From the NCBI GenBank assembly GCA_963727915.1, contig CAVSID010000001.1, forward strand, positions 665,927 to 729,926: a stretch of DNA of 64,000 bases, in the 5' to 3' direction. Positions 24,899 through 43,278 of this stretch are shown here, in pieces. Both the position numbers and the translations under genes were made by a program. Under the pieces are notes generated by a model. That model was given only the letters and a program-made list of their open reading frames with translations. It was not told the origin of the DNA and made no database searches. How positions within the stretch are numbered: the stretch's first letter is position 1; every line of letters begins with the position of its first letter. This DNA comes from an uncultured Chloroflexia bacterium. GTDB taxonomy: Bacteria > Chloroflexota > Anaerolineae > Anaerolineales > E44-bin32.

Positions 24899-24927
24899 TT
24901 GACAGACGAACATATGTTCTATATAAT
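24899..24927 (+). promoter_or_regulatory. Perfect sigma-70 consensus promoter TTGACA-17-TATAAT
   Basis: TTGACA 24899-24904, 17-nt spacer, TATAAT 24922-24927. Drives the LuxR-type gene. Confidence 0.65.
24907..24920. promoter_or_regulatory. Cheo-box / Gram-positive-type LexA box CGAACATATGTTCT in the promoter spacer
   Basis: Core GAAC-N4-GTTC is perfect. 13 of 14 positions match CGAACATATGTTCG. Confidence 0.45.
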
Positions 24928-24983: not shown

Positions 24984-25422
24984 GTGGGACTTTTCGGGCG
25001 GTTGCGCGGCCAACGGGACGGCGACAGCGGTCCGTTGGCCGACGCGTTCGATGAACGAGCCGGGCTCCAGCTTGAGCTCGATCCGGAGCTGAGCGCCCGC
25101 TTGCGGCAGGCAGCCGAGCGGCGCGGCCGCCATCCCCGGGCCCTGGTCCACGATCTACTGGTTGACGGCCTCGAGCAGGCGCTGCGCCGCCGCCAGGCCC
25201 AGGCCGTGCTCGACCAACTCACGCCGCGCCAGCAGCAGGTCGCCAAGCTGACCACCCGCGGCTACACCAACCACCAGATCGCCGAGGCGCTGGTGGTCTC
25301 ACCCGGAGACGGTCAAGACCCACATCCGCCACGTACTGGAGCGGTTCGACGTCGCCAGCAAGGCCGACCTGCGCGTTTTGCTGCTCGATCTCAAGATCCG
25401 CTGGTGGGAGGTCGATTCCTGA
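24984..25422 (+). CDS. LuxR/GerE-family helix-turn-helix regulator (one apparent frameshift near 25300)
   Basis: AGGAGG RBS, GTG start. LTPRQQQVAKLTTRGYTNHQIAEALVVSP then, in the next frame, ETVKTHIRHVLERFDVASKADLRVLLLDL. Confidence 0.75.
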
Positions 25423-25433
25423 CCGGCCATCGC

Positions 25434-25461
25434 TTGACAGGCTCACCCACGCGGGTATCCT
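25434..25461 (+). promoter_or_regulatory. Candidate promoter TTGACA-16-TATCCT
   Basis: -10 ends 4 nt before ATG 25466. Possible leaderless or very short leader. Confidence 0.35.
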
Positions 25462-25465
25462 CACA

Positions 25466-26148
25466 ATGGGCCGGAACCGGGCCATTCGCCCTGTGCGGCC
25501 CCAAACCATGCCCGAGAAGACACTCTCCATCCACACCGCACGCCGCATCTATGACCTCATCGGACGAGCCTACGATCTCGCCGCCGCCTTTGAGGGCCGG
25601 GCCCAGCAGGTAGGGCGCCAGAAGCTCCAGCTTGAACCCGGGCTGCGCGCGCTCGAGGTAGGCGTCGGCACGGGGCGCGAGCACCAAACCCTGACCGGCG
25701 CCGTCGCCCCGGCGGCCTGGCCGTGGGGCTGGACCTGTCGTTCGTCATGGCGCGCCTGACCCACCGACGGACGCGGTCGCCCATTTGCCAGGCCGACGCC
25801 AGCTGGATCCCCTTCGCTGACGGCAGCTTCGACCGGGTCTTCGCCGCCTATGTGCTCGACCTGATGGCGGCGCCCGTCCTGCCCGTGGTCATGCGCCAGT
25901 TCCGGCGGGTCTTGCGGCCCGGAGGCAGGTTGGCAGTGGTGGCCATGACCGAAGGCGTCACCCCGGCCAGCCGCGCCTTGGTCAGCGTCTGGAAGGCCGT
26001 CTATGCTGTCAGCCCCAAGCTCTGCGCCGGCTGCCGCCCACTCCAACTGGCCGAGATCGCCCGCCAGGCCGGATTCACACAGGTCGAGGCGCAGGTCGAG
26101 GTGGAGTGGGGGGTTCCCAGCGAGGTGCTGGTGGCCGTTCGAAGCTGA
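25466..26148 (+). CDS. Class I SAM-dependent methyltransferase (one apparent frameshift near 25715; alternative start 25508)
   Basis: Motif I ALEVGVGTG, post-I GLDLS, FDRVFAAYVLDLM, LRPGGRLAV. Confidence 0.75.
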
Positions 26149-28057: not shown

Positions 28058-28570
28058 TCAGCCGAGCAACCCCCCGTAGAACAAGCCGATCAGCAAGTTG
28101 AAGATGATGTACACCGCCAGGCCGATGACCGCCGTCACCAGCGCCTTGAAGGTGTCAAATTCCATGGTTTCGCGGATAGCGATCACGCCGGCGGCGATGG
28201 TCAGGAGCCAGGCCGCCAGCCGGAAGAACGGCCCTACGCAGGGCAAGAAACCGAGGACGCCGACGAAGCGAGGCGCGTTGGCGTACCCAAGCGCTCGCAC
28301 CATTTCACTCAGTTGGCTCCGCCCGCCGAGAAAATCGCCCACAAGGTTGGCGATCACCGCCCACAGAAGCCAACCGATGAGGAGCCCGTTGATCAACTCG
28401 GCTCCGAACCCCAGCGCCCAGTGGCGGCTACCGATTCCGGTGCCGATGGCTGAAAACAAGGTGGCCACCAGCACCATGAGGGCGGCCTCACCTAGCAGCC
28501 GATCGTCGGCGGCCACTTCCCGGTAGAGGCTGGAGTCCAAACGCATGGCGCGCAGCACACGTTCAAACAT
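28058..28570 (-). CDS. Yip1 family membrane protein
   Basis: Intact 170 aa. FERVLRAMRLDSSLYREVAADD start and a 5-TM layout typical of bacterial Yip1/YIF1-domain proteins. Confidence 0.7.
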   Translation of the reverse strand: MFERVLRAMRLDSSLYREVAADDRLLGEAALMVLVATLFSAIGTGIGSRHWALGFGAELINGLLIGWLLWAVIANLVGDFLGGRSQLSEMVRALGYANAPRFVGVLGFLPCVGPFFRLAAWLLTIAAGVIAIRETMEFDTFKALVTAVIGLAVYIIFNLLIGLFYGGLLG

Positions 28571-28604
28571 GGCGATCGCCTCCGATGCCTGGTTGACGCC
28601 CGCT

Positions 28605-30081
28605 TCAGTCGGCGGTCTTGAGAGTCAACCGCCCGTCTGCCAAAGGCTCATAGGTCATGGGTCCTTGCGGGATCTTGTTGATGATCTGGAGCTGGCCAGC
28701 GTCCATCGCTTCCCAGATAATCTGGAACGGCGCCTTCCCGTCCACCCACTTTTCAGCGATGACGCAGCCATGGCCAGGCAGGACGGTGAACACAAGATTC
28801 CGAGGGTCGTCTGGATTGCTCAGTGCCACCGAACGGCCGAAGGCTTCCTTGATGCCCTGGGCCTGCGCTTCCGTGGCGCAAGACACCAGGTAGTGATAGT
28901 AGGGTGCGTCCAGCGGCACATACTCAACCGCTTCGGGATCGTAGCCGCCGATCGCCCGGTGACCATGCAGCTTGGAGCGCACTACCGGCACCTCGTCATC
29001 TACATCCCAGGCCCCCCCCAAACTGATCTTGGGGAGCACCCGGTCCATGTCCAGCATCTCCACCGCTTCCGATGAAGGCGGATCGTTTCGCTTGCCCTCC
29101 ACGTGCCGGACCTGAGCGCCGCTCCCGTCCGGCCGCAGCCCGACGATCACGGCCAGATCGTCCTCGGTGATGTTGCCCTTGTCCACCGGGCGGGCGCTGC
29201 CGGTCACGGTTGCGATCAGCGCCTTAAGATGGGGCTCCCAGGTGGCAAAGCAGCCTTCGCTGTACTGGCTGGCGACCGAGTTCGGCCACGGCCGGCACCT
29301 GCACCAGGTCGACGATGCGCACCATTTCGGTGAAGAAGCGGCGGTTGTCCAGCTCCAACGCGGCCGAACGCATCTCATCAACCGTGTTGAGCGAATCCCA
29401 TTCCTCGCGGCCGATCAAGGGTTCGAGCACACTGTGCTCAGTGACCTCGCCGGTGCTGGCGGCGGTCACGATCCGCATCACGATATCGGAGTAGAAGTCC
29501 CCTCCCTCGCCAGCCAGGCTGCGTGGATGGGCCCCAACCAAATCGAAGTGATATGCCAGCTCAGGCTCCTCGTCGCCGACCACAAGCACAATCCGAATGC
29601 TCTTGGACTGAGCCTGCAGCAGGCGTTCCAGGGCCATGATCGGCCCGCCTCGCAACCCCTGTTCCACCAGGACGCGATAGGCGTCCGGCGCCAAGCCGGG
29701 GAATTGGAAATCCTGCAGATCGGGCGGGTCTTTCGCAAGCGCCTCGTCAAAGTGACTCAGGGACTGCTCGAGCACCTCGGGGGTCACATGGATGAGGGTG
29801 TAGATGGTTGGGGACCGCTCGAGTCCGAACTTGCGCCGTGCCGAGAAAAGCATGGCATCTCGCCAGCCCAGCGGCTCACCGTAAAGAGCCGTGGTCACCA
29901 GGACGTCGGTATCATCGGCCGGCGTGTCCTGGATCTCATGGCCGTGCTCCTGGAAAGCTTCCAGCAGATTGTCGGCGACATCCTCCAGCATTGCCGACAT
30001 GGGCCCAGGCTCAAAAACCACCTTGATCTTCTTCAGCCAAGGATGGGTTGGCTTGGCCGTCTGTTCGAGACTCACACTCAT
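28605..30081 (-). CDS. Conserved-looking hypothetical protein of ~490 aa, no family recognised (one apparent frameshift near 29290)
   Basis: Fragments 29224-30081 and 28605-29381 are collinear. Soluble, mixed alpha/beta composition. In an operon-like array: GNAT, this gene, Yip1. Confidence 0.6.
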
Positions 30082-30151
30082 GAATTGCTTCTCCTAACTC
30101 CGACCCTCTCGGGCCGAACGGCCATCCCTGGCCTGGTGCGTTGTCATCGGT

Positions 30152-31292
30152 TCATTCGGGAATATGGCGCTTGAAGACTCGGTGGTTCTTATATGGAACC
30201 CCACCTACGTTCTCGAGGTCGCGCCGCATTTCTACGGCGCTTTCCGCCACCTGAGTTAGGTCAGCATGCCGAAAGCCATAATCCCGGACCGTTTTCTCCA
30301 TCTCCGAGTACATCAGGGCGTTCCCTCCTCGCCCCTTGAATTCAGGCAGGATGCCGATGCCGTTCAGCGACACCCACTTCGTCCGCCGGAACTCTATCAA
30401 CAGATCGATGAGGCCGAAGGGGAACAGCCGCCCGCCATTCCGCTGGATGGCGGCCGAAACGTCTGCGAAGGCGAATAAAAAGCCTACCACACGATCTTCA
30501 TGGGTGATGATCTTGATCAGCTTCGGATCGGCGACGGTCATCAGGTTGTCGGTAAGGAATTTGATCTCATCTTCGGTGAGAGGATAGTACTCCCAATTGT
30601 TGATGAACGAACTCGTTGTAGGCGCGCCCGATACGGTCGGCCCATTTCACCAACTCGCGCTTGCTCTTGAATTGGCGTACGGTCAGGCCGCTGACCCTCT
30701 GGGCACGCGTTGCGATCTTGTGGACCCGCTCCGGCATGCGGAACTTGTTGGCATCAAGGTAGCACGAAACGAAATCAACTTTCTTTTCAAAACCTAGCTT
30801 CTCGGCGAACTCGGGATAGTAGGGTGGGTTGTAGTTCATCATCGTCATGGCGGGTCGAAACTCGAAACCTTCGATCAGCATGCCGTAGCCATCCAGCGCG
30901 CCGAAACCCTTGGGGCCGACGATATCGGTCAGCCCCCGATTGCGCGCCCAATCAAAGGCCGCCTCAAACAGAGCCTGGGCGACCTCGAAATCCTCGATGC
31001 ACTCAAAGTGGTAGAACTGGGCCTCACGTGTGCCATGGTAGGCATTGTAAGGCTTGTTCTCCATGGCCGTGATCCGTCCCACCGGCTTGCCATCTTTCCG
31101 CGCCACAAAAAAATCGGCGTCGGAGTGGCCATAGAAAGGATGCTTGTCCCGATTGAGCATGGTGGCAATATCGATGCGGATGGGAGGGACCCAAAGGGGA
31201 TTGCCGCGGTAGAGTTCGAAGGGAAGATTCAGGAAATCACGAGTGTCGCGTTTTGAGTGTGTGTCGATCTTTTCGACTTTGAGCATGCGCAC
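30152..31292 (-). CDS. GNAT-family N-acetyltransferase, long (~380 aa) form (one apparent frameshift near 30560)
   Basis: C-terminal acetyl-CoA region VSLNGIGILPEFKGRGGNALMYSEMEKTV (Q/R-x-x-G-x-G/A motif). N-terminal domain in 30567-31292. Confidence 0.7.
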
Positions 31293-31313
31293 CTCGATCG
31301 ATCGGTTTAGCGG

Positions 31314-31343
31314 ATTGTAACATCGGCCCTATCCGTCTACAAT
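31314..31343. promoter_or_regulatory. Mirror-symmetric overlapping divergent promoters (ATTGTAA-17-TACAAT read on either strand)
   Basis: Plus: TTGTAA 31315-31320, 17 nt, TACAAT 31338-31343 (plsC). Minus: TTGTAG 31342-31337, 17 nt, TACAAT 31319-31314 (GNAT gene). Confidence 0.45.
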
Positions 31344-31375
31344 CGGGCCCTCAACAGCTGGAGGTTGCTCGTCAC

Positions 31376-32044
31376 GTGATCGTCAAACTCTTGTTGGCAT
31401 TCTTTCGGTCCGGATTGTGGCTGCTGACTCGAACGCAGGTTGACGGGATCGAGAACGTGCCTGATCCCCCCTACATCCTGGCCACCAACCACCTGGGGAC
31501 GCTTGACGTCCCCTTCATTTATGGCACGGTTGGCGGCCCGCACCTCGTCGGTTGGGCGGCCGAGAAGTATGAACGTAGCCTGATCCGGGGCACCATCCTT
31601 AGAGCAGGCGGGGCGGTCTTTATTCAGCGCGGCAAGGTGGATCGGCATGCCCTGGACTTCGCCGTCGAGACCCTTAAGAGCGGGAAGTCTTTCGGCATGG
31701 CACCGGAGGGCACGCGCAGCCCTCACCACAGCCTGATTCGCGGCAAGACCGGTGTGGCTTATCTGGCCGCCGAGTCCGGCGTGCCCGTGGTGCCCGTGGC
31801 GCTCACCGGCACCCATCGCCCGTATGATCATTGGTTGCGGCTGCGCCGCCCCCTGATGACGGCGCGCTTCGGACCCCCGTTCCATCTTCCGCCCCTTCCA
31901 GAAGAGGGACGTGGGGAGGCCCTGCGCAAGAACACCGATGAGATCATGTGCCGCATCGCAGCGTTGCTGCCACCCGAATACCGCGGCCTCTACGCCAATC
32001 ACCAGCGCACCCTCGAATTGATCGCGCAGGGGTACGGCTACTGA
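31376..32044 (+). CDS. plsC: 1-acyl-sn-glycerol-3-phosphate (lysophospholipid) acyltransferase
   Basis: Intact 222 aa. NHLGTLD (NHxxxxD) and APEGTRS motifs. Confidence 0.85.
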   Translation: MIVKLLLAFFRSGLWLLTRTQVDGIENVPDPPYILATNHLGTLDVPFIYGTVGGPHLVGWAAEKYERSLIRGTILRAGGAVFIQRGKVDRHALDFAVETLKSGKSFGMAPEGTRSPHHSLIRGKTGVAYLAAESGVPVVPVALTGTHRPYDHWLRLRRPLMTARFGPPFHLPPLPEEGRGEALRKNTDEIMCRIAALLPPEYRGLYANHQRTLELIAQGYGY

Positions 32045-32078
32045 GCCCGCGCTGGTTGTCCAAGCCCGGGATACGCTT

Positions 32079-32094
32079 TGTGAAATCTTTCACA
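32079..32094. promoter_or_regulatory. Perfect CRP/FNR-like palindrome TGTGA-AATCTT-TCACA
   Basis: In the plsC-membrane gene gap, 17 nt before ATG 32111. Confidence 0.5.
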
Positions 32095-32110
32095 ATCTGA
32101 GGCTCATCCG

Positions 32111-32738
32111 ATGTCCCTTTTGAATCCGCTTTCGATCCTGTTCTTTAGCCTGACATTGGCTGCACTGGGCTCCCTTATCGTCCTCGCCCGTGGGGCCACC
32201 GACCGACAAAGCCCGGCCTTCGGCTTGGCCGCCCTGGGATTGATCGGAAGTTTAGATGCGATGTCGCTGTTGGGGGGCTTCTCCATCGGGCCGGTCATGG
32301 CCCTGGTGGCGGTTCCCCTGGCGGTGCTGCTTGCCTGGGGGGCAGGCAGCTTTCGCATGCCGCTGGGGTTGATGGCGGTGGCCACGGCGCTGCTGGCCGT
32401 GGGTGCGCTTCAAGGCGGGTTGTCTGGGACCCTGCGCTGGGGGCTCGGATTTGGCCTGGCGGCCGTCGCCGCGCTCTCCGTGATGCGGCTGGTGCGCTTC
32501 TGGGCGAGCCGCGAAACCGGCGAGTTCAGCGGTTGGTGCCTCGCGCTGAGCGCAGCCCTCGGCGGCGTTGGCCTGATCTTCGGCATTCCCGATCCGGGGG
32601 GGATCGGACTGTGGGCGGCCCGGGCGGGCGCCGTTGCGGCGGCCGGCCTGGTGTTCTTTGCCGCGGCGCTTCCAGCTCGGCCTGGTCGCTGTGGCTCTCC
32701 TCGACGCTCTGTTGGCCCTCGGTCTCTCCGGCTTCTGA
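32111..32738 (+). CDS. Hypothetical membrane protein (apparent frameshift near 32680)
   Basis: Gly/Ala/Leu-rich multi-TM sequence. Plausible C-terminus FQLGLVAVALLDALLALGLSGF, stop 32736-32738 in another frame. Confidence 0.45.
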
Positions 32739-32821
32739 TCCCGGCCTCCGCCGGGCCATTTTCGGCCTCTGCTGCACCACGGCGCGACTTTCGGCCGCCG
32801 GCCTGTGTATGGGCTAACACC

Positions 32822-33833
32822 ATGGCCAGATTCCGTCAGCACGGCCCCGCCCTGATGCTGTTCTTCCTGGCGCCTGCTATCGGCGAACTACTCTCCGGGG
32901 CCTCGCCCCCTTTCAAATTCTTCAACCCTTTCTTGTTCGTGGTGCTGTGCGTCTTGTACGGCGGCGGGGCCCTGCTCGTTCGCGAGCTCGACTCTGCGCT
33001 GGGGCAGAGGCTGGCCGACGATCCTGACTCTGGGGGCTGCCTACGGACTGCTAGAAGAGGGCCTGATGGTCAAGAGCCTGTTCGACCCGGCCTGGCCCGG
33101 GCTGGGAGAGTACGTCGCCGTCGGGCGCGCCTGGGGAGTAAATTGGATCTGGGGCGTGGATCTGACCATCTACCACGCCGTCATCAGCATCTCTATTCCC
33201 ATCCTGCTGGTTGAGCTGACTTTCCCCGAACGATGCCAGGCCTGGGTGTCCCCACACGCGCTGCGGGTCGTGGGCGGTCTGCTGGCGGCCGACGTCTTGT
33301 TCGGTTTCGCCCTGATCACCCCCTACCGTCCGCCAGCGCTCCCGTATGTGTTGACCGCAGCCCTGGTGGTCGGCCTGATCCTTCTCGCGAGGAGGCTGCC
33401 AGCCTCCTTGTTCGCTGCCCCTTATCCCGTTGCCCCCCACCGGCGGGTTGGCTGGGTCGGCCTGGCGGCTTTCGCTGGCACGTTGGCCTATTTCGGCGTC
33501 TCGTGGGCTCTGCCCGCCAGCCGGCTCTCGCCGTGGCTGTTGTTCGAAGCCGTGGGTTTCGTGGTGGCTGGCACGGGCATGACCATCATCGCCCTGACCG
33601 AGGGCGGACGCCTGTCGTCCCCGGCTCACCGCCTGGCCATGGCCTCCGGTGCCCTTTCGTTCTTCATCCTCCTCGCCCCGCTTCAGGAATTCGGCCGCGG
33701 GGCGATCGGGATGCTCCCGGTGGGCCTGCTGGCGCTGCTGATGCTCGTCTGGCTGTCACGGCGCGTCCGGCGGTTTCCGCTTGAAGCATCGGTCTCCCGC
33801 TCGCCCTCCCCTGCACTTCCCCCGCGCGGGTGA
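32822..33833 (+). CDS. Hypothetical polytopic membrane protein (apparent frameshift near 33000)
   Basis: MARFRQHGPALMLFFLAPAIGELLSG... joined to ORF 33066-33833 (EGLMVKSLFDPAWPGLGEY...). Confidence 0.5.
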
Positions 33834-33867
33834 TCTGCGGATCATCCCAAATCAACCTCGAGTGGGA

Positions 33868-33896
33868 TTGTCTCCCAGCGCCTTTGCGGCTATATC
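33868..33896 (+). promoter_or_regulatory. Candidate promoter TTGTCT-17-TATATC for the PolB operon
   Basis: Hexamers at 33868-33873 and 33891-33896. Confidence 0.3.
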
Positions 33897-33899
33897 TTT

Positions 33900-33913
33900 A
33901 GCACATCTGTTCT
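33900..33913. promoter_or_regulatory. SOS-box-like imperfect palindrome AGCACATCTGTTCT
   Basis: GCAC-N4-GTTC, one mismatch from GAAC-N4-GTTC. 12 of 14 positions identical to the perfect box at 24907-24920. Sits just downstream of the candidate -10. Confidence 0.35.
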
Positions 33914-33944
33914 ATTGATAAGCCTGCTGTCTGAGAGGGGCGCC

Positions 33945-34550
33945 ATGCTTCACAACGAGCTCGTCCTGCGAACGACCCCCGATATACCGATCCCCGGCAT
34001 CGACCCGGCCCTGTTGGATGCCATCAGCCGACCCAGGCTGACTCTGCTGTGGGGCGTCACCACGCCCACCCGCACCCTGCTGGCCGCCTTGACCATGATC
34101 GCCGCCGGCGGTCAGAGTGTGCGGGTCTTCGATGGCGGCAACCGCTTCGATGGCTACTTTGTGGCCCGGCTGGCCCGCCGCCTGACGCCCGACCTGCAGG
34201 CGGCGATGGGGCGCATTCATCTGTCGCGGGCTTTCACCTGTTTCCAACTGGCCGAGTTGATCGAAAACGTCCCGGCCGAGCCATCACCTCTGTTTGGCCT
34301 CGACTTTCTAGCCACCTTTTACGACGAAAGCGTTCCCTTGCGCGACAGCGAGCGGCTGCTGTCGACCACCCTGGCACATCTCAGGCGCCTGGCGGCCGTG
34401 GGGCCGGTGATCATCGGTGCGCAGGAACCGCGCAGCCTGGTCAAAGATCGTTGGTCCTTGCTCGACCAACTGCAGGCAGCCGCCGACGGCGCCTGGCTGC
34501 TTCGCCTGCCCGAGTCCCAACCACCCTTGCAGCCCCGGCTGTTCACTTGA
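33945..34550 (+). CDS. RecA/KaiC-like fold protein with degenerate P-loop and C-terminal QPRLF (putative polymerase accessory factor)
   Basis: Intact ORF (the track starts at TTG 33915; ATG 33945 after GAGAGGGG is preferred). LTLLWGVTTPTRTLLAAL in place of Walker A, LFGLDFLATFYDE Walker-B-like, ends PPLQPRLFT. Confidence 0.6.
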   Translation: MLHNELVLRTTPDIPIPGIDPALLDAISRPRLTLLWGVTTPTRTLLAALTMIAAGGQSVRVFDGGNRFDGYFVARLARRLTPDLQAAMGRIHLSRAFTCFQLAELIENVPAEPSPLFGLDFLATFYDESVPLRDSERLLSTTLAHLRRLAAVGPVIIGAQEPRSLVKDRWSLLDQLQAAADGAWLLRLPESQPPLQPRLFT

Positions 34551-34650
34551 GATGCCCAATCGATCATGTCCAAGTCATCGCCCTCACCGACCGAACATCA
34601 GCGTTACAAGCTAGCGCTAGGTGCTAGAAACTAGAAGCCAGGAGCTATCC

Positions 34651-34965
34651 ATGGGCCGCACCCTTCCCTCCATCACCCAAGCCTTCCTCCAGGAGCAGAG
34701 CTCCCTGGCGCGCTTCCGCCGGGCCTTGCGCCGGGAGGATCAGCACGCGCTGGACGAGCTGCTGGCCGACGCCCGGCGCCATCTGGCGGCAGCGGCCTAC
34801 GCCTCCCATCTGCTGCCGTTCGAGGTCATGCTGCTGGCCATGCTGGTCGAAGAACACAAGGCGGTCATCGACCTGCGGCGGCGCCTGGACGACATGGAAG
34901 GAACAGTCGAAACGCTCGCCTCACCCCGCCTGGCTTCCCCGGACGGCGGCCGGACGGACGCCTGA
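34651..34965 (+). CDS. Small (104 aa) predicted all-helical protein, unknown family
   Basis: Intact. AGGAG 6 nt upstream. Stop is 2 nt before the PolB GTG. Confidence 0.6.
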   Translation: MGRTLPSITQAFLQEQSSLARFRRALRREDQHALDELLADARRHLAAAAYASHLLPFEVMLLAMLVEEHKAVIDLRRRLDDMEGTVETLASPRLASPDGGRTDA

Positions 34966-34967
34966 GC

Positions 34968-37400
34968 GTGCCCAGTTTTTACGGCTGGCTGTTCGATGCC
35001 TACCCGCGGGGCGCGGCATGGCGGTCTGGTTTCTCGACAACGAAGGGCGCGCCGTGCCCCTGCTCGACCATTTCACCCCCGCCTTCTACGCTCGCGGTCC
35101 ACAGAACGATTTGCACGATGTCTGCCGGATGCTGCGCACCCAGCGCGCCCCGGTCGGGCTGCGCCGCACCGAGCGGCGCGACCTGTTTCTCGATCAGCAG
35201 GTGGAGGTGCTCGAGGTGGGTGTGCGCTTTCCTGCCCTACTGCAGCGCCTGCAGCGCCAGGTGGCCGAATTCCGCCCTCATCTAACCTACTACGACGCCG
35301 ACATTCCGATCCCCCAGCGCTACGTCCTGGCCCGCGGGATCTTCCCGTTGGCCTATTGCCGGGTAGAGCACGCCGACGGCCGCCTGATTGCCATCGAGGC
35401 GCTCGACTCCCCCTGGGACGCCGAGTACCGCCTACCGCAGCTGCGGGTGATGACCCTCCGCCTGGACGGCGAGCTGCGCAACCCGGCCCGGGGCTACCGC
35501 AGCGATTTATTGGTCGAGGCCGGCGGCCAGAGCTACGTCTTTAAACGCGACCAGGGACGCCAGCTCGTGCTCGGTGTGCGCCACCTGCTCGAGCAGCACG
35601 ACCCCGATCTACTGGTCAGCGCTTATGGTGACTCCTTCATCCTGCCGCGCCTGATCGAGCTCTCGCGTCACTACGGCCTTCCCCTGCCGCTCAACCGTGA
35701 CCACGGGCAGGCGGTCGGCCACAAGCGTGCCCATTCCTACTTCTCCTATGGCAAAGTCATCTTCCGCGACGAGCAGCACACCTTGTTCGGCCGCTGGCAC
35801 ATCGACCGCCAGAACGCCTTCCTGGCCGATGATTACGGGCTGGACGGCAACCTGGAGATCGCCCGTCTGACCGGCCTGCCGGTGCAGACCGTGGCCCGCG
35901 TTTCCACCGGCACCGGGATCAGCGCCATGCAGGTCGCCACGGCGCTGCGGCGCGGCGTGCTCGTCCCCTGGCAGAAGCGGCAACCGGAAGCCCTCAAGAC
36001 CGGCCTCGACCTGTTCGCCGCCGACAAGGGCGGCCTGGTCTACACCCCCATCGCCGGCCTGCACGAGCACGTGGCCGAGTTGGATTTCACCGCCATGTAC
36101 CCCAGCCTGATGGTGCACTTCAACTTGTCGCCCGAGACCGTCAAGGCCGAGTGCTGCCCGGGCGTACCGGTGCCCGAACTGGGAACCCCCGTCTGCAACC
36201 ACCGCCAGGGCCTAGTGCCGGAGACGCTGGCCCCGCTGCTCGAGAAGCGCGCCCGCTACAAGGCGCTCATGCGCGCCCTGCCCGAAGACGACCCGCGCCG
36301 CGAGGTCTACCGGCGCCGCTACTCGGCCCACAAATGGCTTCTGGTGACCTGTTTCGGTTATCTGGGGTACAAGAACGCCCGCTTCGGGCGCATCGAAGCT
36401 CACGAGGCGGTCACGGCCTACGGCCGCGAGGTCCTGCTGCAGGCCAAAGAAATCGTCGAAGCTCGCGGCTACCGCGTGCTGCATATGTACGTCGACGGCC
36501 TGTGGATCCACAAGCCCGGCGCCCGCGGCCGCCCGGATTACGAAGGGCTGCTGGAGGTCATCAAACACCAGACCGGCCTGCCGATCGAGTTGGAAGGCGT
36601 CTACCGCTGGCTGGCGTTCCTGCCGTCGCGCACCGAGCCGCGCGTGGCGGTCGCCAACCGCTATTTCGGCGCTTTTCAAGACGGGTCAATCAAGATCCGA
36701 GGCATTGAGGCTCGGCGTCACGACACGCCGGCTTACATCAAAGACACACAGCTCCACATCCTCGAGATCCTGGCCGACGGCCGGGACGCCGCCGGTTTCC
36801 GGGCGCTTCTGCCCAAGGCCGTTGCCTATGCCACCGAACGGCTGCGGCTGCCTGCGCGCCGGGCAGGCGCCGGCCAAAAGCCTGGTGGTCCAACAGCGCC
36901 TGTCGCGCGAGCCGGAAGAGTTCAGGGTGCGTACGGCCGCTGCCCGCGCCGTCCAGCAGCTGCTGCGCGCCGGGGTCCCCCTCAGCGCTGGCGAGCAGTT
37001 GCGCTTTCTGTACGTGCCCGGGCCGGAGAAGGTGCGCGCCTGGGACCTGGTGGACCAAGCGATGCCCTACGATGTCGAAGCCTATACCGAACTGTTCCTG
37101 CGCGCCGTCGAGTCACTGCTCTCCGTGGCCAGCGTCGACCGGTCAATGCTCGAGAACTGGCTCCTGGCCGGGGCCGGGTACTGGGGGCCGCCCGGCGTGC
37201 TGCCTCCTCCCGGCGCCGATCCCCGCATGCCTCTGCTGGCAGCACGCGCCGGCGGCGAAGGACCACAGCGCCGCAGCCCGTCCCCGTGCCGGCCGCAGCC
37301 ACCCAGGACCGATACACAGGACACTGGGGCCGCCGCTTTCCCTGAATGCCGGGTGGCCTTGACCGGGCAGAAAACAGTTAGAATCCTGCCGCGCCGCTGA
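34968..37400 (+). CDS. Family B DNA polymerase, Pol II / Pol-epsilon-N-like (2 apparent frameshifts near 35012 and 36850; 3' end uncertain, 37230-37400)
   Basis: N-terminus VPSFYGWLFDAYPRG then MAVWFLDNEGRAV. ExoI-like LRLDGE, motif A LDFTAMYPSLM, motif B SAHKWLLVTCFGYLGY, motif C HMYVDGLWI, ANRYFG...IKIRGIEARRHDTP, thumb SLVVQQRLSREPEEF... Confidence 0.85.
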
Positions 37401-37499
37401 CGACATCGGCGCGGGCCGGCACCCACGCGCTCATCACACCAACGCCCGCCACCAACCCCGAGCCCGCCGCCCATCATCGCAAGCCACGAGGCCGAGACC

Positions 37500-39490
37500 A
37501 TGCCTTCCTCTAGATCCGTTATCGCCATCACGGCCAGTCTGCTCCTGGCAGGCTGTCAGGCAGCCGCCACGCCCGTCGCCGCTCCAGCGAGCCCGACCAG
37601 CGCGCCGCCGAGCATCACGGACACCCCCACCGTGAGCCCCACACCGGCCAGCACGCCCAGCGGAACGTGGATCCGCCTGACGCCCGACAACGGCGCGCCG
37701 GGGACGCCGATCCAGATCGACGGCTATCTACCCGGCGGGCCAACCGCCGACGAAGCCCAAGGCAATCTGACATTGCAGCACACCACCGTTTGCTGGGACG
37801 GCTGCCTGACAGGATTTACAGCCGTGGACGTCCCCGTCCAATGGTCCGCCGACCAAGCTGGCAACTTCACCATCAACTTCAACGCGCCCAGCGTACCCTG
37901 GTGGGGTTCACAGGGGCCGCAACCGGTTCAGGATGGTGAATACGCCGTGGGGGTCCAATGCCTGGGTCCCCTCGTGCCGGGATGCGCCAACCAGGAGGCC
38001 TTGGCAACGGCCAGCTTCCAGGTGGTAGGCGCCCAACCCTCGCGCTGCGGCCAGGCACAGCCGTGCGCCGAGCTGACACTGAACCCCAGCCAGGCCCAGC
38101 CCGGAGATTCCGTGCAGGTATCCGGATGGGCCCCCTTGATCGAGACCATCAGCGGAGAGCCGTTTGGCTACACTCTCGCCATCCGGGCCGGCGACGCCAA
38201 CACCTCGACCGGGCCCATCGGCCAGGTCACCCAGCAGCTCAACGGTGGACTCGACCGGGGGCTTCACGGTGCCCCAATCCATCCCCGGCGATGGCACGCT
38301 TTCGCCCGGGACGTACGACGTATTGCTTCAGGCGTCAGCGCCCCAGACGATCGTCATCGGCCAGGGTGGGCCAACGGTTGCCAAGGCCAGTCTCGCCCTG
38401 GGGCTATCCCTGGCATGGAGCTCGCTTGGTGTAGGCTCGCCCATTTGGCTGTCGCCGACGGCCGGCCTCGTCAGCCCGTCGATCAGCCTCGATCCCGGGG
38501 ACGCCCATCGGCTGGCCTACTGCGCGCCAAACGCCATCCGACTATCGAAGCGATTCGGGGCAATCGTGGCGAGATGTACCCGTCGTCGGGGCCGTCGATG
38601 CCGTCAATCAGATCGGGTTCGAGATCATGTCGGGCGGGGCCACCGGCGGCGCGCCACAGTGTGTTTCCGTCGCACTCGACCCCGCCCATCCCAACAGCCT
38701 TTACGCTGTATTCGCCACAGCCGAACGGCAGATGGGCGCCCCGCCCGAGTTCTTCAAAGGGCTGATCACCACCGACCTTGGCGCAACCTGGCAGCTGGTT
38801 CCCGCGCCAGGCCCGGCCAACGATTTCGCATTTGGAGGTTTCGCCAGTTGGGCAGGGGGCCGGGTAGAAGCGCTGTTTGGCAGCGCTGGCGACCGTCCGG
38901 CCGGGCAGGTGGAAGCCACCCAGGATGGCGGCACGGCATGGCAGCCCCAGACCCTGACCTGTCCCCCCGCCGGACCATGCCTGCGATGGGGACCCAGCCC
39001 CAGCTCCATCAGCGGCATGGGCGCCCCTCGCCCGCAATCCCTTCTGCTTTCGGCCAGCGGCGGTCAGAGCTGGTCCGCCAGCGCAATCACGCTCGACCTG
39101 CACGCCAGTGTGGCTGGAGAGGTGGCTGGTTACGACGGTGGGCGAGCGGTGGTCTTGGCCGGCCAGGAACCCTTCCCCGCCCGCTGGACCAACGACGGCG
39201 GCACTACCTGGACAACCTTGACCCTGCCCCCGCTCCCTGGGTCTCCCGACGCAGCATTGGCCTACCCTGGTCTCCAAATCATGCCAGACGGATCGCTGAT
39301 CGCCCTGGCCGATGACGGCGGGTGGAAAACCCTCCCTCCAGGCGCAGACGCATGGTGCTCGCTCGCCTCGGACCGTCTCCCCAAGGCGACGGTAAGGCTC
39401 GCTCTTGCCGGCGACAGGGTTTGGTGGCTAGACCCCGACACCGGCGGCCCATCGCATGCCGCGCTGGCCGCCTTTGCCTGTCCGCCCTAA
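37500..39490 (+). CDS. Lipoprotein with BNR/Asp-box repeats (beta-propeller-like), about 3 apparent frameshifts
   Basis: Lipobox LLLAGC, Pro/Thr/Ser linker. Asp-box-like TTDLGATWQ, TQDGGTAWQ, SASGGQSWS, TNDGGTTWT. Confidence 0.65.
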
Positions 39491-39611
39491 AGGCAGATCT
39501 CCTGGGCCGCAAGACCAGGAGCCCGGATCGCTTCATCAACCGCCCGGCCAATCGCGTCTATACTTTGTGGCTAGACGTGGCCCTCCGATCTTGGCCTAGC
39601 GGGGGACGAAT

Positions 39612-40355
39612 ATGAACCGGCAGAGGATTGATATGAACTCATCTTTTGGCTCGAGCTTGCCCACACCCATGAGCGCCATGGCTCTCCAGGAAGCCGTGGC
39701 CAATATCATGCGCCAGGTGTACTTGTGGATAGCGTCCGGGCTGTTTGTGACGGCCGGCGTGGCGTGGGTCGTCGGGAGCTCATCGATCCTTCTCGTGTTC
39801 GCTCAGCTACCGATCCTCTTCTACGCTGTACTCATCGGCGAGTTCATTCTGGTCATTGCCCTCACGGCCGGCATCAACCGGCTGTCGCCTACGGCCGGGT
39901 TGGTACTCTTCTTCGCCTACGCCGGCCTGAACGGCGTCACCATGGCCCTCATCTTTTTGCTCTACACGGCCAGCAGCATTGCCTCTACCTTCGCCGTGAC
40001 AGCCGGTCTGTTTGCGATTATGAGCATCTTGGCCTACTCGACCGGTCTGGATCTCACGCGCTTCCGCAGCCTGTTCCTGATGGGGCTGGTGGGACTGGTC
40101 CTGGGCTCGGTGGTCAATATCTTCTTCGCCAACAGCATTCTGTACTGGGTCCTGACCTACGCCGGGATCGCGCTCTTCCTTGGCCTGACCGCCTACGACA
40201 CACAGCGGATCCGCCGCCAGGCGGAGGCCGCCATCGTGAGCGGCGAGCAGGCTGCACTTCAGAAGCTTGGCATCATGGGCGCCCTCAGCCTTTACCTCGA
40301 CTTCGTCAACCTGTTCCTGCTGCTCTTGCGCGTCCTCGGGAGACGAAGTCGCTAA
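39612..40355 (+). CDS. Bax inhibitor-1/YccA family membrane protein
   Basis: Intact 247 aa, 7 TM. Characteristic MGALSLYLDFVNLFLLLLRVLG C-terminus. Confidence 0.85.
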   Translation: MNRQRIDMNSSFGSSLPTPMSAMALQEAVANIMRQVYLWIASGLFVTAGVAWVVGSSSILLVFAQLPILFYAVLIGEFILVIALTAGINRLSPTAGLVLFFAYAGLNGVTMALIFLLYTASSIASTFAVTAGLFAIMSILAYSTGLDLTRFRSLFLMGLVGLVLGSVVNIFFANSILYWVLTYAGIALFLGLTAYDTQRIRRQAEAAIVSGEQAALQKLGIMGALSLYLDFVNLFLLLLRVLGRRSR

Positions 40356-40401
40356 GCACTCGCTCGCCTGCATCGGATCTATAAAGTCGGGAGCGCGAGA
40401 T

Positions 40402-40431
40402 TTGACGCTCTTGCGTAACTCATGGTATGAT
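40402..40431 (+). promoter_or_regulatory. Promoter TTGACG-18-TATGAT with TGn extension, for infC-rpmI-rplT
   Basis: TTGACG 40402-40407, TGg 40423-40425, TATGAT 40426-40431. Confidence 0.5.
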
Positions 40432-40496
40432 CGCACCATCAGCCGGCCGCTCGCACGTTCGGGGCGGCCTGCATGCACTGTCGGAAGGAGTAGAAC

Positions 40497-41012
40497 ATAA
40501 GCGCATCAGAATTCCGCATCAATGACGGCATCCGCGTTCGAGAAGTACGCCTGGTCGACGCGGACGGCGAAAACGTTGGCGTCGTGCCGATAGAGGATGC
40601 CCTCAGCCGTGCACAGCAGGCAGGGCTCGACCTGGTAGAGGTAGCCCCCAACAGTGATCCGCCGGTATGCCGGATTCTCGACTACGGTAAGTTTATGTAC
40701 GAACGCGCCAAGAAGGAGCGAGAGGCGCGCAAGTCCCAGACCAAAGTTGAGATCAAGGAAATTCGCTTTCGCCCCAAGACCTCCGACCATCACAAATCCT
40801 TCAAGGTCAAGAACGCCAGAAGGTGGCTGGGTGAAGGCAAGAAGGTGCGTGTACGTATTCGATTCCGGGGTCGTGAGCTCGATTATCCCGAAATCGCCTT
40901 GAACGACTTGAAGAGCATCGCCGAGGAGCTCTCCGATGTCAGCATCATCGAGCAGGCGCCAAGTATGGAAGGGCGCACGATGCTGATGGTCCTGGCGCCT
41001 GAAGCCAACTGA
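40497..41012 (+). CDS. infC: Translation initiation factor IF-3 with a non-canonical ATA start
   Basis: GGAAGGAG then 6 nt then ATA. ISASEFRINDGIRVREVRLVDADGENVGVVPIEDALSRAQQAGLDLVEVAPNSDPPVCRILDYGKF... The track only shows the part from an internal M (40584). Confidence 0.9.
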   Translation: MSASEFRINDGIRVREVRLVDADGENVGVVPIEDALSRAQQAGLDLVEVAPNSDPPVCRILDYGKFMYERAKKEREARKSQTKVEIKEIRFRPKTSDHHKSFKVKNARRWLGEGKKVRVRIRFRGRELDYPEIALNDLKSIAEELSDVSIIEQAPSMEGRTMLMVLAPEAN

Positions 41013-41096
41013 ATCTCGGTCACTCTCTGTTACAATTCGATGCTGTCCGCCGCGGACCCAACATTGTCCGCGGCGCTGTATGAAAGGGAGCCATCC

Positions 41097-41369
41097 ATGC
41101 CCAGGAAAAAGACCAAACAGGGCAAGTACAAGCTCAAGACCCACAAGGCCACGTCGAAGCGCTTCCGCATGACCGGGTCGGGCAAGTTGGTGCGAACCAA
41201 AGGCGGCCAGAGTCACCTGCGCCGGCGCACCCCCAAGCGGAGCAAGCGTATGTTCGCCAAGATGCTGCCGGTTAAGGCATCCAAGATCCGCAAGCGCGTC
41301 CGCCGCTTGGCCCCCTATTTGAGCAAGTACCGCGCCAATCCCAACGCCCGGACGGGTCAGTCCTCCTGA
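41097..41369 (+). CDS. rpmI: 50S ribosomal protein L35 (long form, 90 aa)
   Basis: KLKTHKATSKRFRMTGSGKLVRTKGGQSHLRRR. Confidence 0.85.
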   Translation: MPRKKTKQGKYKLKTHKATSKRFRMTGSGKLVRTKGGQSHLRRRTPKRSKRMFAKMLPVKASKIRKRVRRLAPYLSKYRANPNARTGQSS

Positions 41370-41456
41370 CCCCGGGGCTGTAGCGTGGCTGTTGTGCGCA
41401 GGCAACTGGCGTCGATAGTGGGCGCCGGCGCTCAGCGGGCCACAGGAGAGTAGAAC

Positions 41457-41804
41457 GTGCCAAGGACCAAGGGCGGTGTTGTCACCCGCCGTCGCCACAA
41501 GAAGATCCTCAAGGGAAACAAAGGCTACTACGGCAGTCGAAGCAAGCTCTTTCGCCGGGCCAACGAGGCCATGCTCAAGAGCCTCTGGTACGCGTACCGC
41601 GATCGCCGCACGCGCAGGCGCGATCTGCGCAGGCTGTGGATCGCTCGCATCAACGCCGCCGCCCGCATCAACGGAACGACCTACAGCCGGCTGATCCATG
41701 GCATGCGCCAGAAGAACGTACAGCTCAACCGGAAAGTGCTGGCCGAACTGGCTGTTCGTGATCCCGGGGCCTTCAAAGCCGTCGTCGAGTCTGTCGCCGG
41801 CTAG
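41457..41804 (+). CDS. rplT: 50S ribosomal protein L20
   Basis: GTG start. [38 protein letters not shown]...[13 protein letters not shown]. Confidence 0.95.
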
Positions 41805-41826
41805 TACGAGCGCTGATCAACCCTAA

Positions 41827-41854
41827 GGGACGCCGATGGCGTCCCTTTTGTTTT
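41827..41854 (+). terminator. Rho-independent terminator after rplT
   Basis: GGGACGCC-gat-GGCGTCCC followed by TTTTGTTTT. Confidence 0.75.
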
Positions 41855-41926
41855 GCGGCCCGTATGCGGGGGCGATGATACAATCGGGCCGGATACTCTA
41901 CATTCACCCTGGAGCCGTCCCCTCCC

Positions 41927-42508
41927 ATGTCGGAACTGATCGCCCAGGCCCATCCTGCCACCGGTGTGAGCCTGAGTCTGATTCACGGTGATCTCACCCT
42001 GGAAATGGTCGACGCCGTCGTCAACGCGGCCAATGCCCAGCTGGCCCACGGCGGCGGAGTGGCAGCCGCTATTGTCCGTCGCGGCGGCTCCAGCATCCAG
42101 GCTGAGAGCCGAAGCTGGGTCGCGGAACATGGACCCGCCTCCCACGAGTGTCCGGCGCTGACCGGCGGAGGTGATCTGGCTGCGCACCACGTCATCCATG
42201 CCGTCGGCCCTCGATGGGGAGAGGGCCAAGAGGAGCACAAGCTTCACTCGGCAGTCTCATCGAGCCTGGCCCTGGCCGACATGACAAGCCTCGCCAGCAT
42301 TGCCATGCCGGCGATCTCCACCGGCATTTTCGGTGTCCCCAAGGCTCTCGGCGCGAAAGTCATTCTCGGCGCCATCGCAGCCTACTTCGAAGAGCATGCC
42401 GACAGCGGCATCAAGGACGTGCGCGTCGTGCTCATCGACCGCGAGAGCGTTGACATCTTCGCGGCGGCCTTCAGGGAACGCTGGCCGACTGTGGAAACCC
42501 ACTCATGA
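41927..42508 (+). CDS. Macro domain protein (ADP-ribose/O-acetyl-ADP-ribose processing)
   Basis: Intact. GDLTLEMVDAVVNAANAQLAHGGGVAAAI, VIHAVGPRW, SIAMPAISTGIFG. Confidence 0.85.
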   Translation: MSELIAQAHPATGVSLSLIHGDLTLEMVDAVVNAANAQLAHGGGVAAAIVRRGGSSIQAESRSWVAEHGPASHECPALTGGGDLAAHHVIHAVGPRWGEGQEEHKLHSAVSSSLALADMTSLASIAMPAISTGIFGVPKALGAKVILGAIAAYFEEHADSGIKDVRVVLIDRESVDIFAAAFRERWPTVETHS

Positions 42509-43278
42509 TCAGTTCCCCGACCAACACGCGCGTCAAGTGGGTGCGGGCCCTTCAAGCCAAGCGCAAGGCGCGTGACGAGGAGGGGGTCTTTATCGTCGAG
42601 GGCACCCGCTGGGCGGAAGAGGTGCTGGCGGCCGAGTCTCCCGTCACCCTAGTCCTTCACACACCCCACCTGGATGAACGCGGCCGAGGGATGGTCAATC
42701 GATTGGCGCGTCTGGGCGGCGAGATCTTGTCCGTCAGCGATGACGTGATGGCGGCCTGCTCGGACACGCAAGCTCCCCAGGGATTGCTGTTGGTGCTCCC
42801 CAAACCCGAGATCTCCCTGCCGGCCTCCCCGACCTTGCTCCTCGTCTTGGATCGTATGTCTGATCCCGGCAATCTCGGGACCATTTTGCGGACGGCGCTG
42901 GCTGCCGGTGTCGAAGCTGTGGGCCTCACCCCCGGCAGCGTCGACCCTTTCAACCCAAAGGTAGTGCGGGCCGCCATGGGCGCGCTGCTGCACCTTCCGA
43001 TCACGATCGTTGAGCCGGGCGACGTCCATTCGTGGGCCGGCCGGACCCGGCTCTGGCGGACCCAGGCCGGTGCGGGCACGCCCTACGATCAGGTAGACTG
43101 GCGAGAAGCGGCCACTTTGCTGGTCGGAGGAGAGGCCCACGGTGTGACACCCGAGCTGGGCCAGGCGGTGCCGGAGGCGACTCATATTCCAATGCGGGGC
43201 GCCAGCGATTCGTTGAACGCCGCCATTGCCACAGCCGTGTTCCTGTTCGAAATCAGGCGCCAAAGAGGCCATCCATGA
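42505..43278 (+). CDS. TrmH/SpoU-family RNA 2'-O-methyltransferase
   Basis: Intact. DPGNLGTILRTALAAG, LVGGEAHGV, IPMRGASDSLNAAIATAVFLFE. ATGA overlaps on both sides. Confidence 0.85.
   Translation: MISSPTNTRVKWVRALQAKRKARDEEGVFIVEGTRWAEEVLAAESPVTLVLHTPHLDERGRGMVNRLARLGGEILSVSDDVMAACSDTQAPQGLLLVLPKPEISLPASPTLLLVLDRMSDPGNLGTILRTALAAGVEAVGLTPGSVDPFNPKVVRAAMGALLHLPITIVEPGDVHSWAGRTRLWRTQAGAGTPYDQVDWREAATLLVGGEAHGVTPELGQAVPEATHIPMRGASDSLNAAIATAVFLFEIRRQRGHP

Follow-up and report, generated by a model that had tools for sequence, protein, structure and literature searches.

Gene content and organization of the locus

The stretch of DNA analysed here, hereafter the window, comprises 64,000 nt of contig CAVSID010000001.1 (assembly GCA_963727915.1), which derives from an uncultured bacterium of the Anaerolineales (Chloroflexota). 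Between positions 33945 and 37345 it carries three co-directional genes, visible both in the list of open reading frames (ORFs) and in the raw sequence, in the order iRadA-PPB2-PolB2. These genes encode an inactivated recombinase-like protein, a small helical protein and a family-B DNA polymerase, and they very probably form the operon of a bacterial PolB2 mutasome, which would be repressed by LexA and encode the three subunits of the complex. The genes and the motifs within them are as follows.

33945 to 34550, plus strand: gene 1, iRadA, an inactivated RadA/Rad51-core protein of 201 aa (homology, fold)
34050 to 34076, plus strand: degenerate P-loop WGVTTPTRT of gene 1, without the second Gly and the Lys of Walker A (direct reading)
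34530 to 34544, plus strand: beta-clamp-binding-type motif QPRLF at the C-terminus of iRadA (conservation, literature)
34651 to 34965, plus strand: gene 2, PPB2 (Partner of PolB2; arCOG07300; Pfam DUF8156), a helical protein of 104 aa with an N-terminal MGRT (homology)
34968 to 37345, plus strand: gene 3, PolB2 (group G2 family-B polymerase), 791 aa once three indels are repaired (homology)
35960 to 36034, plus strand: PolB2 loop LVPWQKRQPEALKTGLDLFAADKGG, residues 332-356, which ends in the D(K/R) motif ADKGG and is predicted to contact iRadA and the PPB2 arm (sequence, published modelling)
36482 to 36505, plus strand: motif C of PolB2, HMYVDGLW, with Tyr in place of the first Asp of DxD and with the conserved His (direct reading)

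The co-directional three-gene arrangement and the coordinates of genes 1 and 2 agree with those of an initial annotation made from the sequence alone, as do the ribosome-binding-type AGGAG of gene 2 (34640-34644) and the gap of 2 nt that separates the gene 2 stop from the GTG start codon of gene 3 at 34968. The end of the operon, which had been set at 37400, belongs to an out-of-frame ORF; in the repaired reading frame the true stop of gene 3 is at 37345. Compared with the closest relative, the spacer between genes 1 and 2 contains a 42-nt insertion (34588-34629) that is rich in CTAG/GCTAG repeats (GCTAGCGCTAGGTGCTAGAAACTAG).

Exact-protein look-up returned ten loci, at seven distinct places, with the same trio in the same order and with the polymerase as a single gene of 791-835 aa. 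A wider sample, obtained by scanning the alignment of gene 1 against one genome per GTDB species, yielded 79 loci, nearly all of them on metagenome-assembled genomes (MAGs) of Anaerolineales or Chloroflexota; the sample also takes in the complete Pelolinea submarina genome, and the iRadA of this species has been used for clamp modelling (PMC11791011). Gene 1 is followed by an MGRT-initiated ORF at 74 of the 79 loci, and at 55 it is followed by a polymerase ORF that is 700 aa or longer and has the motif C pattern H..[VTI]D..W; most of the remaining loci have a truncated or split PolB or run off short contigs. The three genes are neighbours at all related loci inspected, with synteny in the ten exact-protein loci and the same order in the larger sample.

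At four loci of other labelling (L043, L068, L073 and L079) an Anaerolineales-like iRadA (59-76% identity) lies on MAG contigs assigned to Methanosarcinales, Planctomycetota, Burkholderiales and Eisenbacteria; these labels probably reflect binning contamination rather than horizontal transfer.

The iRadA and PPB2 proteins

For all three proteins, the reference sequences used in the BLASTP comparisons were those of the supplement of PMC11791011. The gene 1 product shares 37% identity (E 1.5e-27) with the published bacterial iRadA RMD96862 from a member of the Bacteroidota and also matches the archaeal iRadA of Methanomassiliicoccus (E 3.7e-10), while no significant pairwise match to the iRadA of Acidianus was returned by BLASTP. 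It has 458 homologs, the named ones all being 'hypothetical' proteins of Anaerolineales MAGs, and scans of the Pfam, NCBIfam and PADLOC libraries assigned it to no family. An AlphaFold2 model built on 21 homologs, with a mean predicted local distance difference test (pLDDT) score of 83 and a core that begins near residue 20, was compared with the PDB using Foldseek: the best 50 matches were all RadA, Rad51, DMC1 or Rad51 paralogs (probability 1.0, E from 3e-8, template modelling (TM) scores of 0.53-0.67). The N-terminal helical domain is missing from this 201-aa protein. Its P-loop follows the consensus WGAxTPTRT in the 21 homologs, with GK[ST] and the Lys present in none of them. The gene 1 model thus shows the core fold of RadA/Rad51, combined with a P-loop that is dead by sequence; this agrees with the RecA-like pseudo-ATPase with degenerate Walker A that had been recognized by eye; LLWGVTTPTRT, the LFGLDFL noted at that time and the C-terminal QPRLFT can all be read in the protein.

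The C-terminal motif is conserved beyond a variable linker. Residues Q196 and L199 are invariant in the alignment of gene 1 homologs, and a Q..L[FWLI] sequence occurs among the final 12 residues of iRadA at 66 of the 79 loci. Clamp motifs on bacterial iRadA proteins, including those of Anaerolineae, have been described (PMC11791011). The window itself encodes a beta sliding clamp (dnaN, 52833-53963), in which each of the three Pfam domains is found (1e-23 to 3e-32) and which is the presumed partner of the QPRLF tail.

Gene 2 shares 49% identity (E 5e-21) with the published PPB2 RMD96861, and it matches the PPB2 proteins of Lokiarchaeota (E 7e-17) and of Acidianus (E 3e-4). Its homologs number 3531, and the precomputed family PF26485 (DUF8156) is found on all of the 120 best. 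The N-terminus, MGRTLPSIT, is invariant across 18 homologs, with MGRT encoded at 34651-34662. Local scans with Pfam, NCBIfam and PADLOC returned nothing for gene 2, the local copy of Pfam being one without PF26485/DUF8156; the gene 2 of a relative, which carries a precomputed PF26485 and served as control, was likewise unmatched locally. The AlphaFold2 monomer model is all-helical (pLDDT 69, predicted TM score 0.36), and PPB2 has been argued in the literature to be a trimer. In all source records seen, genes 1 and 2 are labelled 'hypothetical'.

The PolB2 polymerase

Gene 3 matches the Pfam family DNA_pol_B at 4e-21. After repair of its reading frame it matched five published PolB2 sequences with E-values of 1e-88, 1e-66, 4e-43, 1e-39 (Acidianus) and 6e-30. 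The nearest solved structures are archaeal PolB (1e-52 to 1e-38 by comparison with the PDB), far ahead of E. coli Pol II (3e-8) and of Pol epsilon (2.5e-6). The two top NCBIfam models, NF004416 and NF004418, are common to gene 3 and two archaeal PolB2 references, whereas the NCBIfam Pol II models reach only 1e-9 to 1e-15. Given these values and the matches to PolB2/G2 references, the descriptions 'Pol-epsilon-like' and 'Pol II-like', applied in the initial annotation to gene 3 and to its thumb, respectively, have to be given up, and sequence comparison assigns the polymerase to PolB2/G2, inside the archaeal B1-3 clade. Bacterial G2 polymerases were placed inside archaeal B2 by Kazlauskas et al. 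2020 (PMC7544198), who list as their features an ExoI that is not conserved, the absence of ExoIII, a D(K/R) motif, and a motif C in which a single Asp is accompanied by a conserved His.

The motifs of gene 3 correspond to this description. Its motif C is of the same type as the 'YVD' strings tabulated for Anaerolineae PolB2 (HMYVDALWV and HLYVDGVWI; PMC11791011), and the HMYVDGLW stretch contains no Glu, the hallmark of group G3; motif B is altered. In an HMMER alignment with the PolB of Pyrobaculum (5mdn), gene 3 has R and D at the catalytic D and E positions of ExoI (FDIE) and Ile at the position of the ExoII Asp; ExoIII was not located, and no exonuclease motif is intact. The LDGE string that had been taken for ExoI is therefore not an intact motif, because the aligned catalytic positions hold R and D (locus L004 has AGE at the position of the window's DGE), and the polymerase is predicted to be proofreading-dead. 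All PolB2 references taken from the supplement to PMC11791011 contain DKGG or DRGG, and the D(K/R) loop has been modelled as the contact for iRadA and for the N-terminal arm of PPB2 (PMC11791011). Direct reading of the C-terminal tail of the repaired PolB2 revealed no Q..LF-type motif.

A LexA-type operator upstream of iRadA

Two features precede gene 1.

33899 to 33914, plus strand: LexA-type SOS box TAGCACATCTGTTCTA, about 30 nt 5' of the gene 1 ATG (conservation)
33853 to 33896, plus strand: probable promoter region, with a block ending in ...GTGGGATTG (33862-33870), a -35-like TTGTCT (33868-33873), a 17-nt spacer and a -10-like TATATC (33891-33896) (conserved blocks)

A search for GAAC-N4-GTTC that tolerated one mismatch located a LexA-type palindrome, TAGAACAnnTGTTCTA, 5' of gene 1 at 75 of 77 loci; the rest of these loci gave a background rate of 0.12 per 330 nt. 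It sits 30-180 nt 5' of gene 1 across loci, and in about 70 of the 75 it is flanked by TA...TA, which lay outside the search pattern; the resulting consensus is ATAGAACAtaTGTTCTAT. In Firmicutes and Actinobacteria, GAAC-N4-GTTC is established as the motif of LexA (PMC3323433). For the Chloroflexi, nothing specific on the LexA motif was found in the literature. The LexA protein of Dehalococcoides binds the Gram-positive box.

The exact 18-mer ATAGAACATATGTTCTAT was further followed in 80 random metagenome loci, ten of which have an SOS-type gene start within 400 nt when a panel of four SOS families only is considered: lexA in two cases, recA/imuA-like genes in four, dinB in three and iRadA in one. 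Autoregulation predicts such a presence of lexA beside the 18-mer. A strict sigma-70 consensus scan called no promoter in the upstream region, and the hexamers given above are a reading of its conserved blocks; GGGAT is located 31-36 nt 5' of the SOS box in 77 loci. On this reading, the operator would overlap a LexA-repressed promoter. That 75 of the 77 Anaerolineales-type loci have this operator 5' of iRadA and no lexA gene beside the operon is a regulatory addition to what has been published on this module, and it means that SOS control of a bacterial PolB2 could be tested directly in relatives available in culture, Pelolinea submarina for instance.

At four metagenome loci (L119, L129, L133 and L143) the exact 18-mer stands 40-140 nt 5' of a RecA-like gene. 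A DinB-like gene is found about 0.8-1.1 kb downstream of the operator at L119, L129 and L143, which are probable imuA-imuB cassettes with the same operator as the PolB2 operon, while L133 is too short to show a second gene. Within the window, AGAAC-N4-GTTCT with one mismatch also occurs at 24907-24920, 64 nt 5' of an ORF with a LuxR/GerE-like helix-turn-helix (24984-25613), and at 59342-59355. Both were rejected as SOS boxes, since the three sites found compare with 0.76 expected (4 of 100 shuffles reach three) and no recognizable SOS gene is adjacent.

Comparison with known polymerase systems

The linkage of the three families has a published history. Makarova et al. 2014 (PMC4104785) associated an 'inactivated' archaeal PolB2 with an inactivated RadA-family ATPase and with the helical arCOG07300 protein of ~90 aa, and reported the same linkage in several bacteria, with lexA sometimes in the operon. 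Timinskas, Timinskas & Venclovas 2025 (PMC11791011) named iRadA and PPB2, gave iRadA-PPB2-PolB2 as the only bacterial gene order, and modelled a PolB2:iRadA:PPB2x3 pentamer, the 'PolB2 mutasome', in which PPB2 has an invariant N-terminal MGRT arm. In that study the beta-clamp motifs are mostly on iRadA, the criterion being a motif on iRadA or on PolB2 but rarely on both, and the supplementary tables hold many Anaerolineae/Anaerolineales operons of the iRadA-PPB2-PolB2 type. Earlier publications thus cover the module, its occurrence in bacteria (Anaerolineae among them), the clamp motifs and the probable function, and the trio is an already known and catalogued module, ordinary rather than new. 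The initial annotation, which knew of no described equivalent using a PolB and had itself held that its proposal would fall with an already catalogued module, is overtaken on this point, because the trio is such a module (PMC4104785, PMC11791011).

Among the described systems, the type 1a PolB2 mutasome of PMC11791011 shares with the window the protein families, the gene order, the MGRT arm, a YVD motif C with its His, the DK motif, a dead exonuclease, a dead P-loop, and a clamp motif that is present on iRadA and absent from PolB2. The two do not differ in anything of substance: neither lexA nor a SRAP-annotated gene was found beside the operon in the loci of this Anaerolineales clade; control is implied here by the conserved operator, which the accessible sections of PMC11791011 do not report. 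The PolB2/Dpo2 operon of Sulfolobales encodes homologous subunits and is damage-inducible, with an exonuclease-dead polymerase acting as an extender in translesion synthesis, but it differs in its gene order (PPB2-PolB2-iRadA), its PCNA-type motifs, and its regulation, which is of Orc1/Cdc6 type and not by LexA.

The likeness to ImuA-ImuB-DnaE2, on which the initial annotation had built its interpretation, is one of analogy only. What stands is the logic of the cassette: an SOS box with probable LexA control, an inactive protein of RecA fold, a small accessory protein or adaptor, contact with the clamp, and an error-prone, proofreading-dead polymerase. What does not stand is any homology to ImuA, ImuB or DnaE2, since gene 1 has its best structural matches among RadA/Rad51/DMC1 and falls into no curated family, gene 2 is a helical protein of 104 aa and not of the Y-family, and gene 3 belongs to the B-family and not to the C-family. 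The parallel drawn for the mutasome by Timinskas et al. 2025 is to Pol V and not to ImuABC (PMC11791011). In the literature, E. coli Pol V (UmuD'2C-RecA) offers a filament-type motif that binds a recombinase-fold subunit, a small-subunit arm at the active site, a clamp contact and SOS control; it differs in its Y-family catalytic subunit, in a RecA that is active and shared with the cell, and in UmuD', which is unrelated to PPB2. E. coli Pol II (G1) has a family-B fold and is SOS-induced and clamp-bound, but it is a single subunit with active proofreading, intact ExoI-III, a DTD motif C and a QLGLF tail of its own. The EpsilonN-like G3 polymerases differ from gene 3 by the Glu of their motif C and by their affinity to the N-terminal half of Pol epsilon.

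Proposed function of the complex

A mechanism can be proposed from the published modelling and from archaeal genetics. DNA damage would lead to cleavage of LexA and to derepression of the operon, after which PolB2, one iRadA and a PPB2 trimer would assemble into a heteropentamer. In this assembly, the PolB2 loop, which mimics the Rad51 oligomerization motif and ends in DK, would hold iRadA, the MGRT arm of one PPB2 would insert beside the active site of PolB2, and the QPRLF tail of iRadA would tether the complex to the beta clamp. The proofreading-dead PolB2 could then extend mismatched or lesion-containing primer termini, which would provide damage tolerance with mutations as its cost. The locus is a cleanly annotated example for genome annotation, and the bacterial PolB2 system is a worthwhile biochemical target.

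Several points weigh against the assignment of the trio to a functional, LexA-repressed PolB2 mutasome. The repaired PolB scores 387 bits against a curated NCBIfam cut-off of 516, NF004416 and NF004418 appearing to be tuned to archaeal members. The PPB2 monomer model is only moderately confident, and it contains two long helices where three have been described. A tblastn search with LexA of E. coli and of B. subtilis found no lexA in the window or in 89 loci, so that the assignment to LexA rests on the identity of the motif and on its association with SOS genes at other loci. Of the three breaks in the polymerase gene, those at 36848 and 37241 lie outside homopolymers, and the independent contig described below covers only the first break. 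The pentamer and its tethering to the clamp are in-silico models taken from the literature, and we know of no experiment on any bacterial PolB2 complex.

That the complex does not act primarily in translesion synthesis, and serves in the restart of stalled forks or in replication regulation or alternative initiation, is improbable. Makarova et al. 2014 (PMC4104785) suggested a fork-restart or replication role at a time when PolB2 was believed to lack activity, and such a role would fit a motif C that has lost one catalytic Asp, an altered motif B and an iRadA derived from a recombinase. However, archaeal PolB2/Dpo2 is catalytically active and needed for damage-induced mutagenesis, the bacterial operon associates with lexA (both according to the literature), the SOS box found here is common to dinB and to imuA/imuB-like cassettes, and no origin-related genes are adjacent to the trio.

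Frame breaks in the polymerase gene

In the window gene 3 is not one ORF but reads successively in frames 0, 2, 0 and 2. Alignment to a relative with 91% identity in gene 1 and an unbroken polymerase gene of 791 aa resolves the breaks into indels at 35008 (-1), 36848 (+1) and 37241-37242 (+2); once they are repaired, the protein matches the 791-aa PolB of the relative over its full length with no internal stop. These breaks are not confined to the polymerase. DNA alignment to the relative over 14.5 kb (28060-42582) revealed about ten frame-breaking indels of 1-2 nt in 6 of 15 genes, for example at 29283, 30608, 32663, 32990, 38255 and 38550, and the split neighbours, which include an acetyltransferase, a membrane protein and a BNR-repeat protein, are split likewise in the ORF list. 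Independent data for the first break come from a short-read contig, L090 (Logan assembly of SRR28002855), which has 99.8% identity with the window along 1292 bases. At 35008 it reads GGGGG where the window has GGGG, which places it in frame (VPSFYGWLFDAYPRGRGMAVWFLD).

Because the neighbours are similarly broken and L090 restores the first site, the three frame breaks of gene 3 are most likely assembly errors, and the operon is for that reason presumed to be functional. Genuine breaks in an operon that is decaying here, with only iRadA and PPB2 still made, are a very improbable explanation. Three frame-breaking indels in one gene, two of them the uncovered non-homopolymer sites mentioned above, are what such decay would produce, but an indel density that is similar in five unrelated neighbouring genes points to a property of the assembly, the sole site under the independent short-read contig is intact there, and the repaired protein is full-length against the relative. 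Programmed frameshifting was rejected in view of the three separate sites, the similar breaks in unrelated neighbours, and the one site that is intact in L090. For annotation, the practical value of this observation is that the apparent polymerase pseudogene is most likely an assembly artefact; with about ten indels, and with the one site checked being an undercall in a G-run, apparent pseudogenes in the window are suspect altogether.

Genomic context

Most of the ten exact-protein loci share the same flanks, with an acyltransferase gene upstream and infC-rpmI-rplT downstream, and because of these constant surroundings the trio is regarded as a stable chromosomal locus and not as a mobile element. 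No integrase-type Pfam family was found on the called genes that flank the trio in these ten loci; no explicit search for terminal repeats was made. The statement of the initial annotation that the trio is neither a pipolin nor a casposon is upheld by the conserved housekeeping flanks and by this lack of integrase-type families. A mobile or defence module, whether an element like a pipolin or casposon or a system that synthesizes DNA against phages, can practically be dismissed: family-B polymerases are known in such elements and gene 3, scanned over 35018-37342, has one PADLOC match, 'HEase' (PDLC03707, 1e-23), but that match covers the polymerase palm only (residues 445-589) within a profile of 1671 positions, genes 1 and 2 have no PADLOC match, the housekeeping neighbours are constant across species, and the GC content of the trio locus is similar to that of its surroundings. 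The 'HEase' match was discarded as evidence for defence, the palm region alone aligning to a small part of a profile that apparently contains a family-B polymerase sequence.

Directly after PolB2, three related loci carry an ORF of about 143-152 aa with no Pfam family (L004, 11026-11457; L008, 9360-9818; L010, 9388-9840), which in L010 overlaps the stop of PolB2. This ORF is a candidate for an optional fourth gene of the operon; the window has a BNR-repeat gene at this place and no such ORF.

Additional conserved blocks upstream of the operon

A further conserved element lies 5' of the promoter.

33818 to 33833, plus strand: conserved GC palindrome TCCCCCGCGCGGGTGA (single copy in the window)

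The GC palindrome is present in 30 of 90 loci, with one site per locus that is always 5' of gene 1, and in the form TCCCCCGCGCGGGKGA it is often accompanied by an inverted copy about 10 nt later. A second conserved block, CCACC-N5-GGTGGGAT(T/G)G, is located at 33853-33870 in the window; the orthologous positions of both blocks are in L011-L089. RNAalifold detected no covariation in 24 aligned upstream regions, in which the blocks are conserved as sequence; an RNA structure has no support, there being no Rfam match, no covariation, and inconsistent single-sequence folds.

Possible roles of the two blocks are the site of a second regulator or an insulator. We tentatively propose, as a doubtful possibility, that the Anaerolineales PolB2 operon is a vertically inherited locus whose promoter combines the LexA box with the TCCCCCGCGCGGGKGA and CCACC-N5-GGTGGGAT elements; if this is true, a second regulator or an insulating element controls the mutagenic polymerase besides LexA. 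Both upstream blocks are present whatever gene lies 5' of them.

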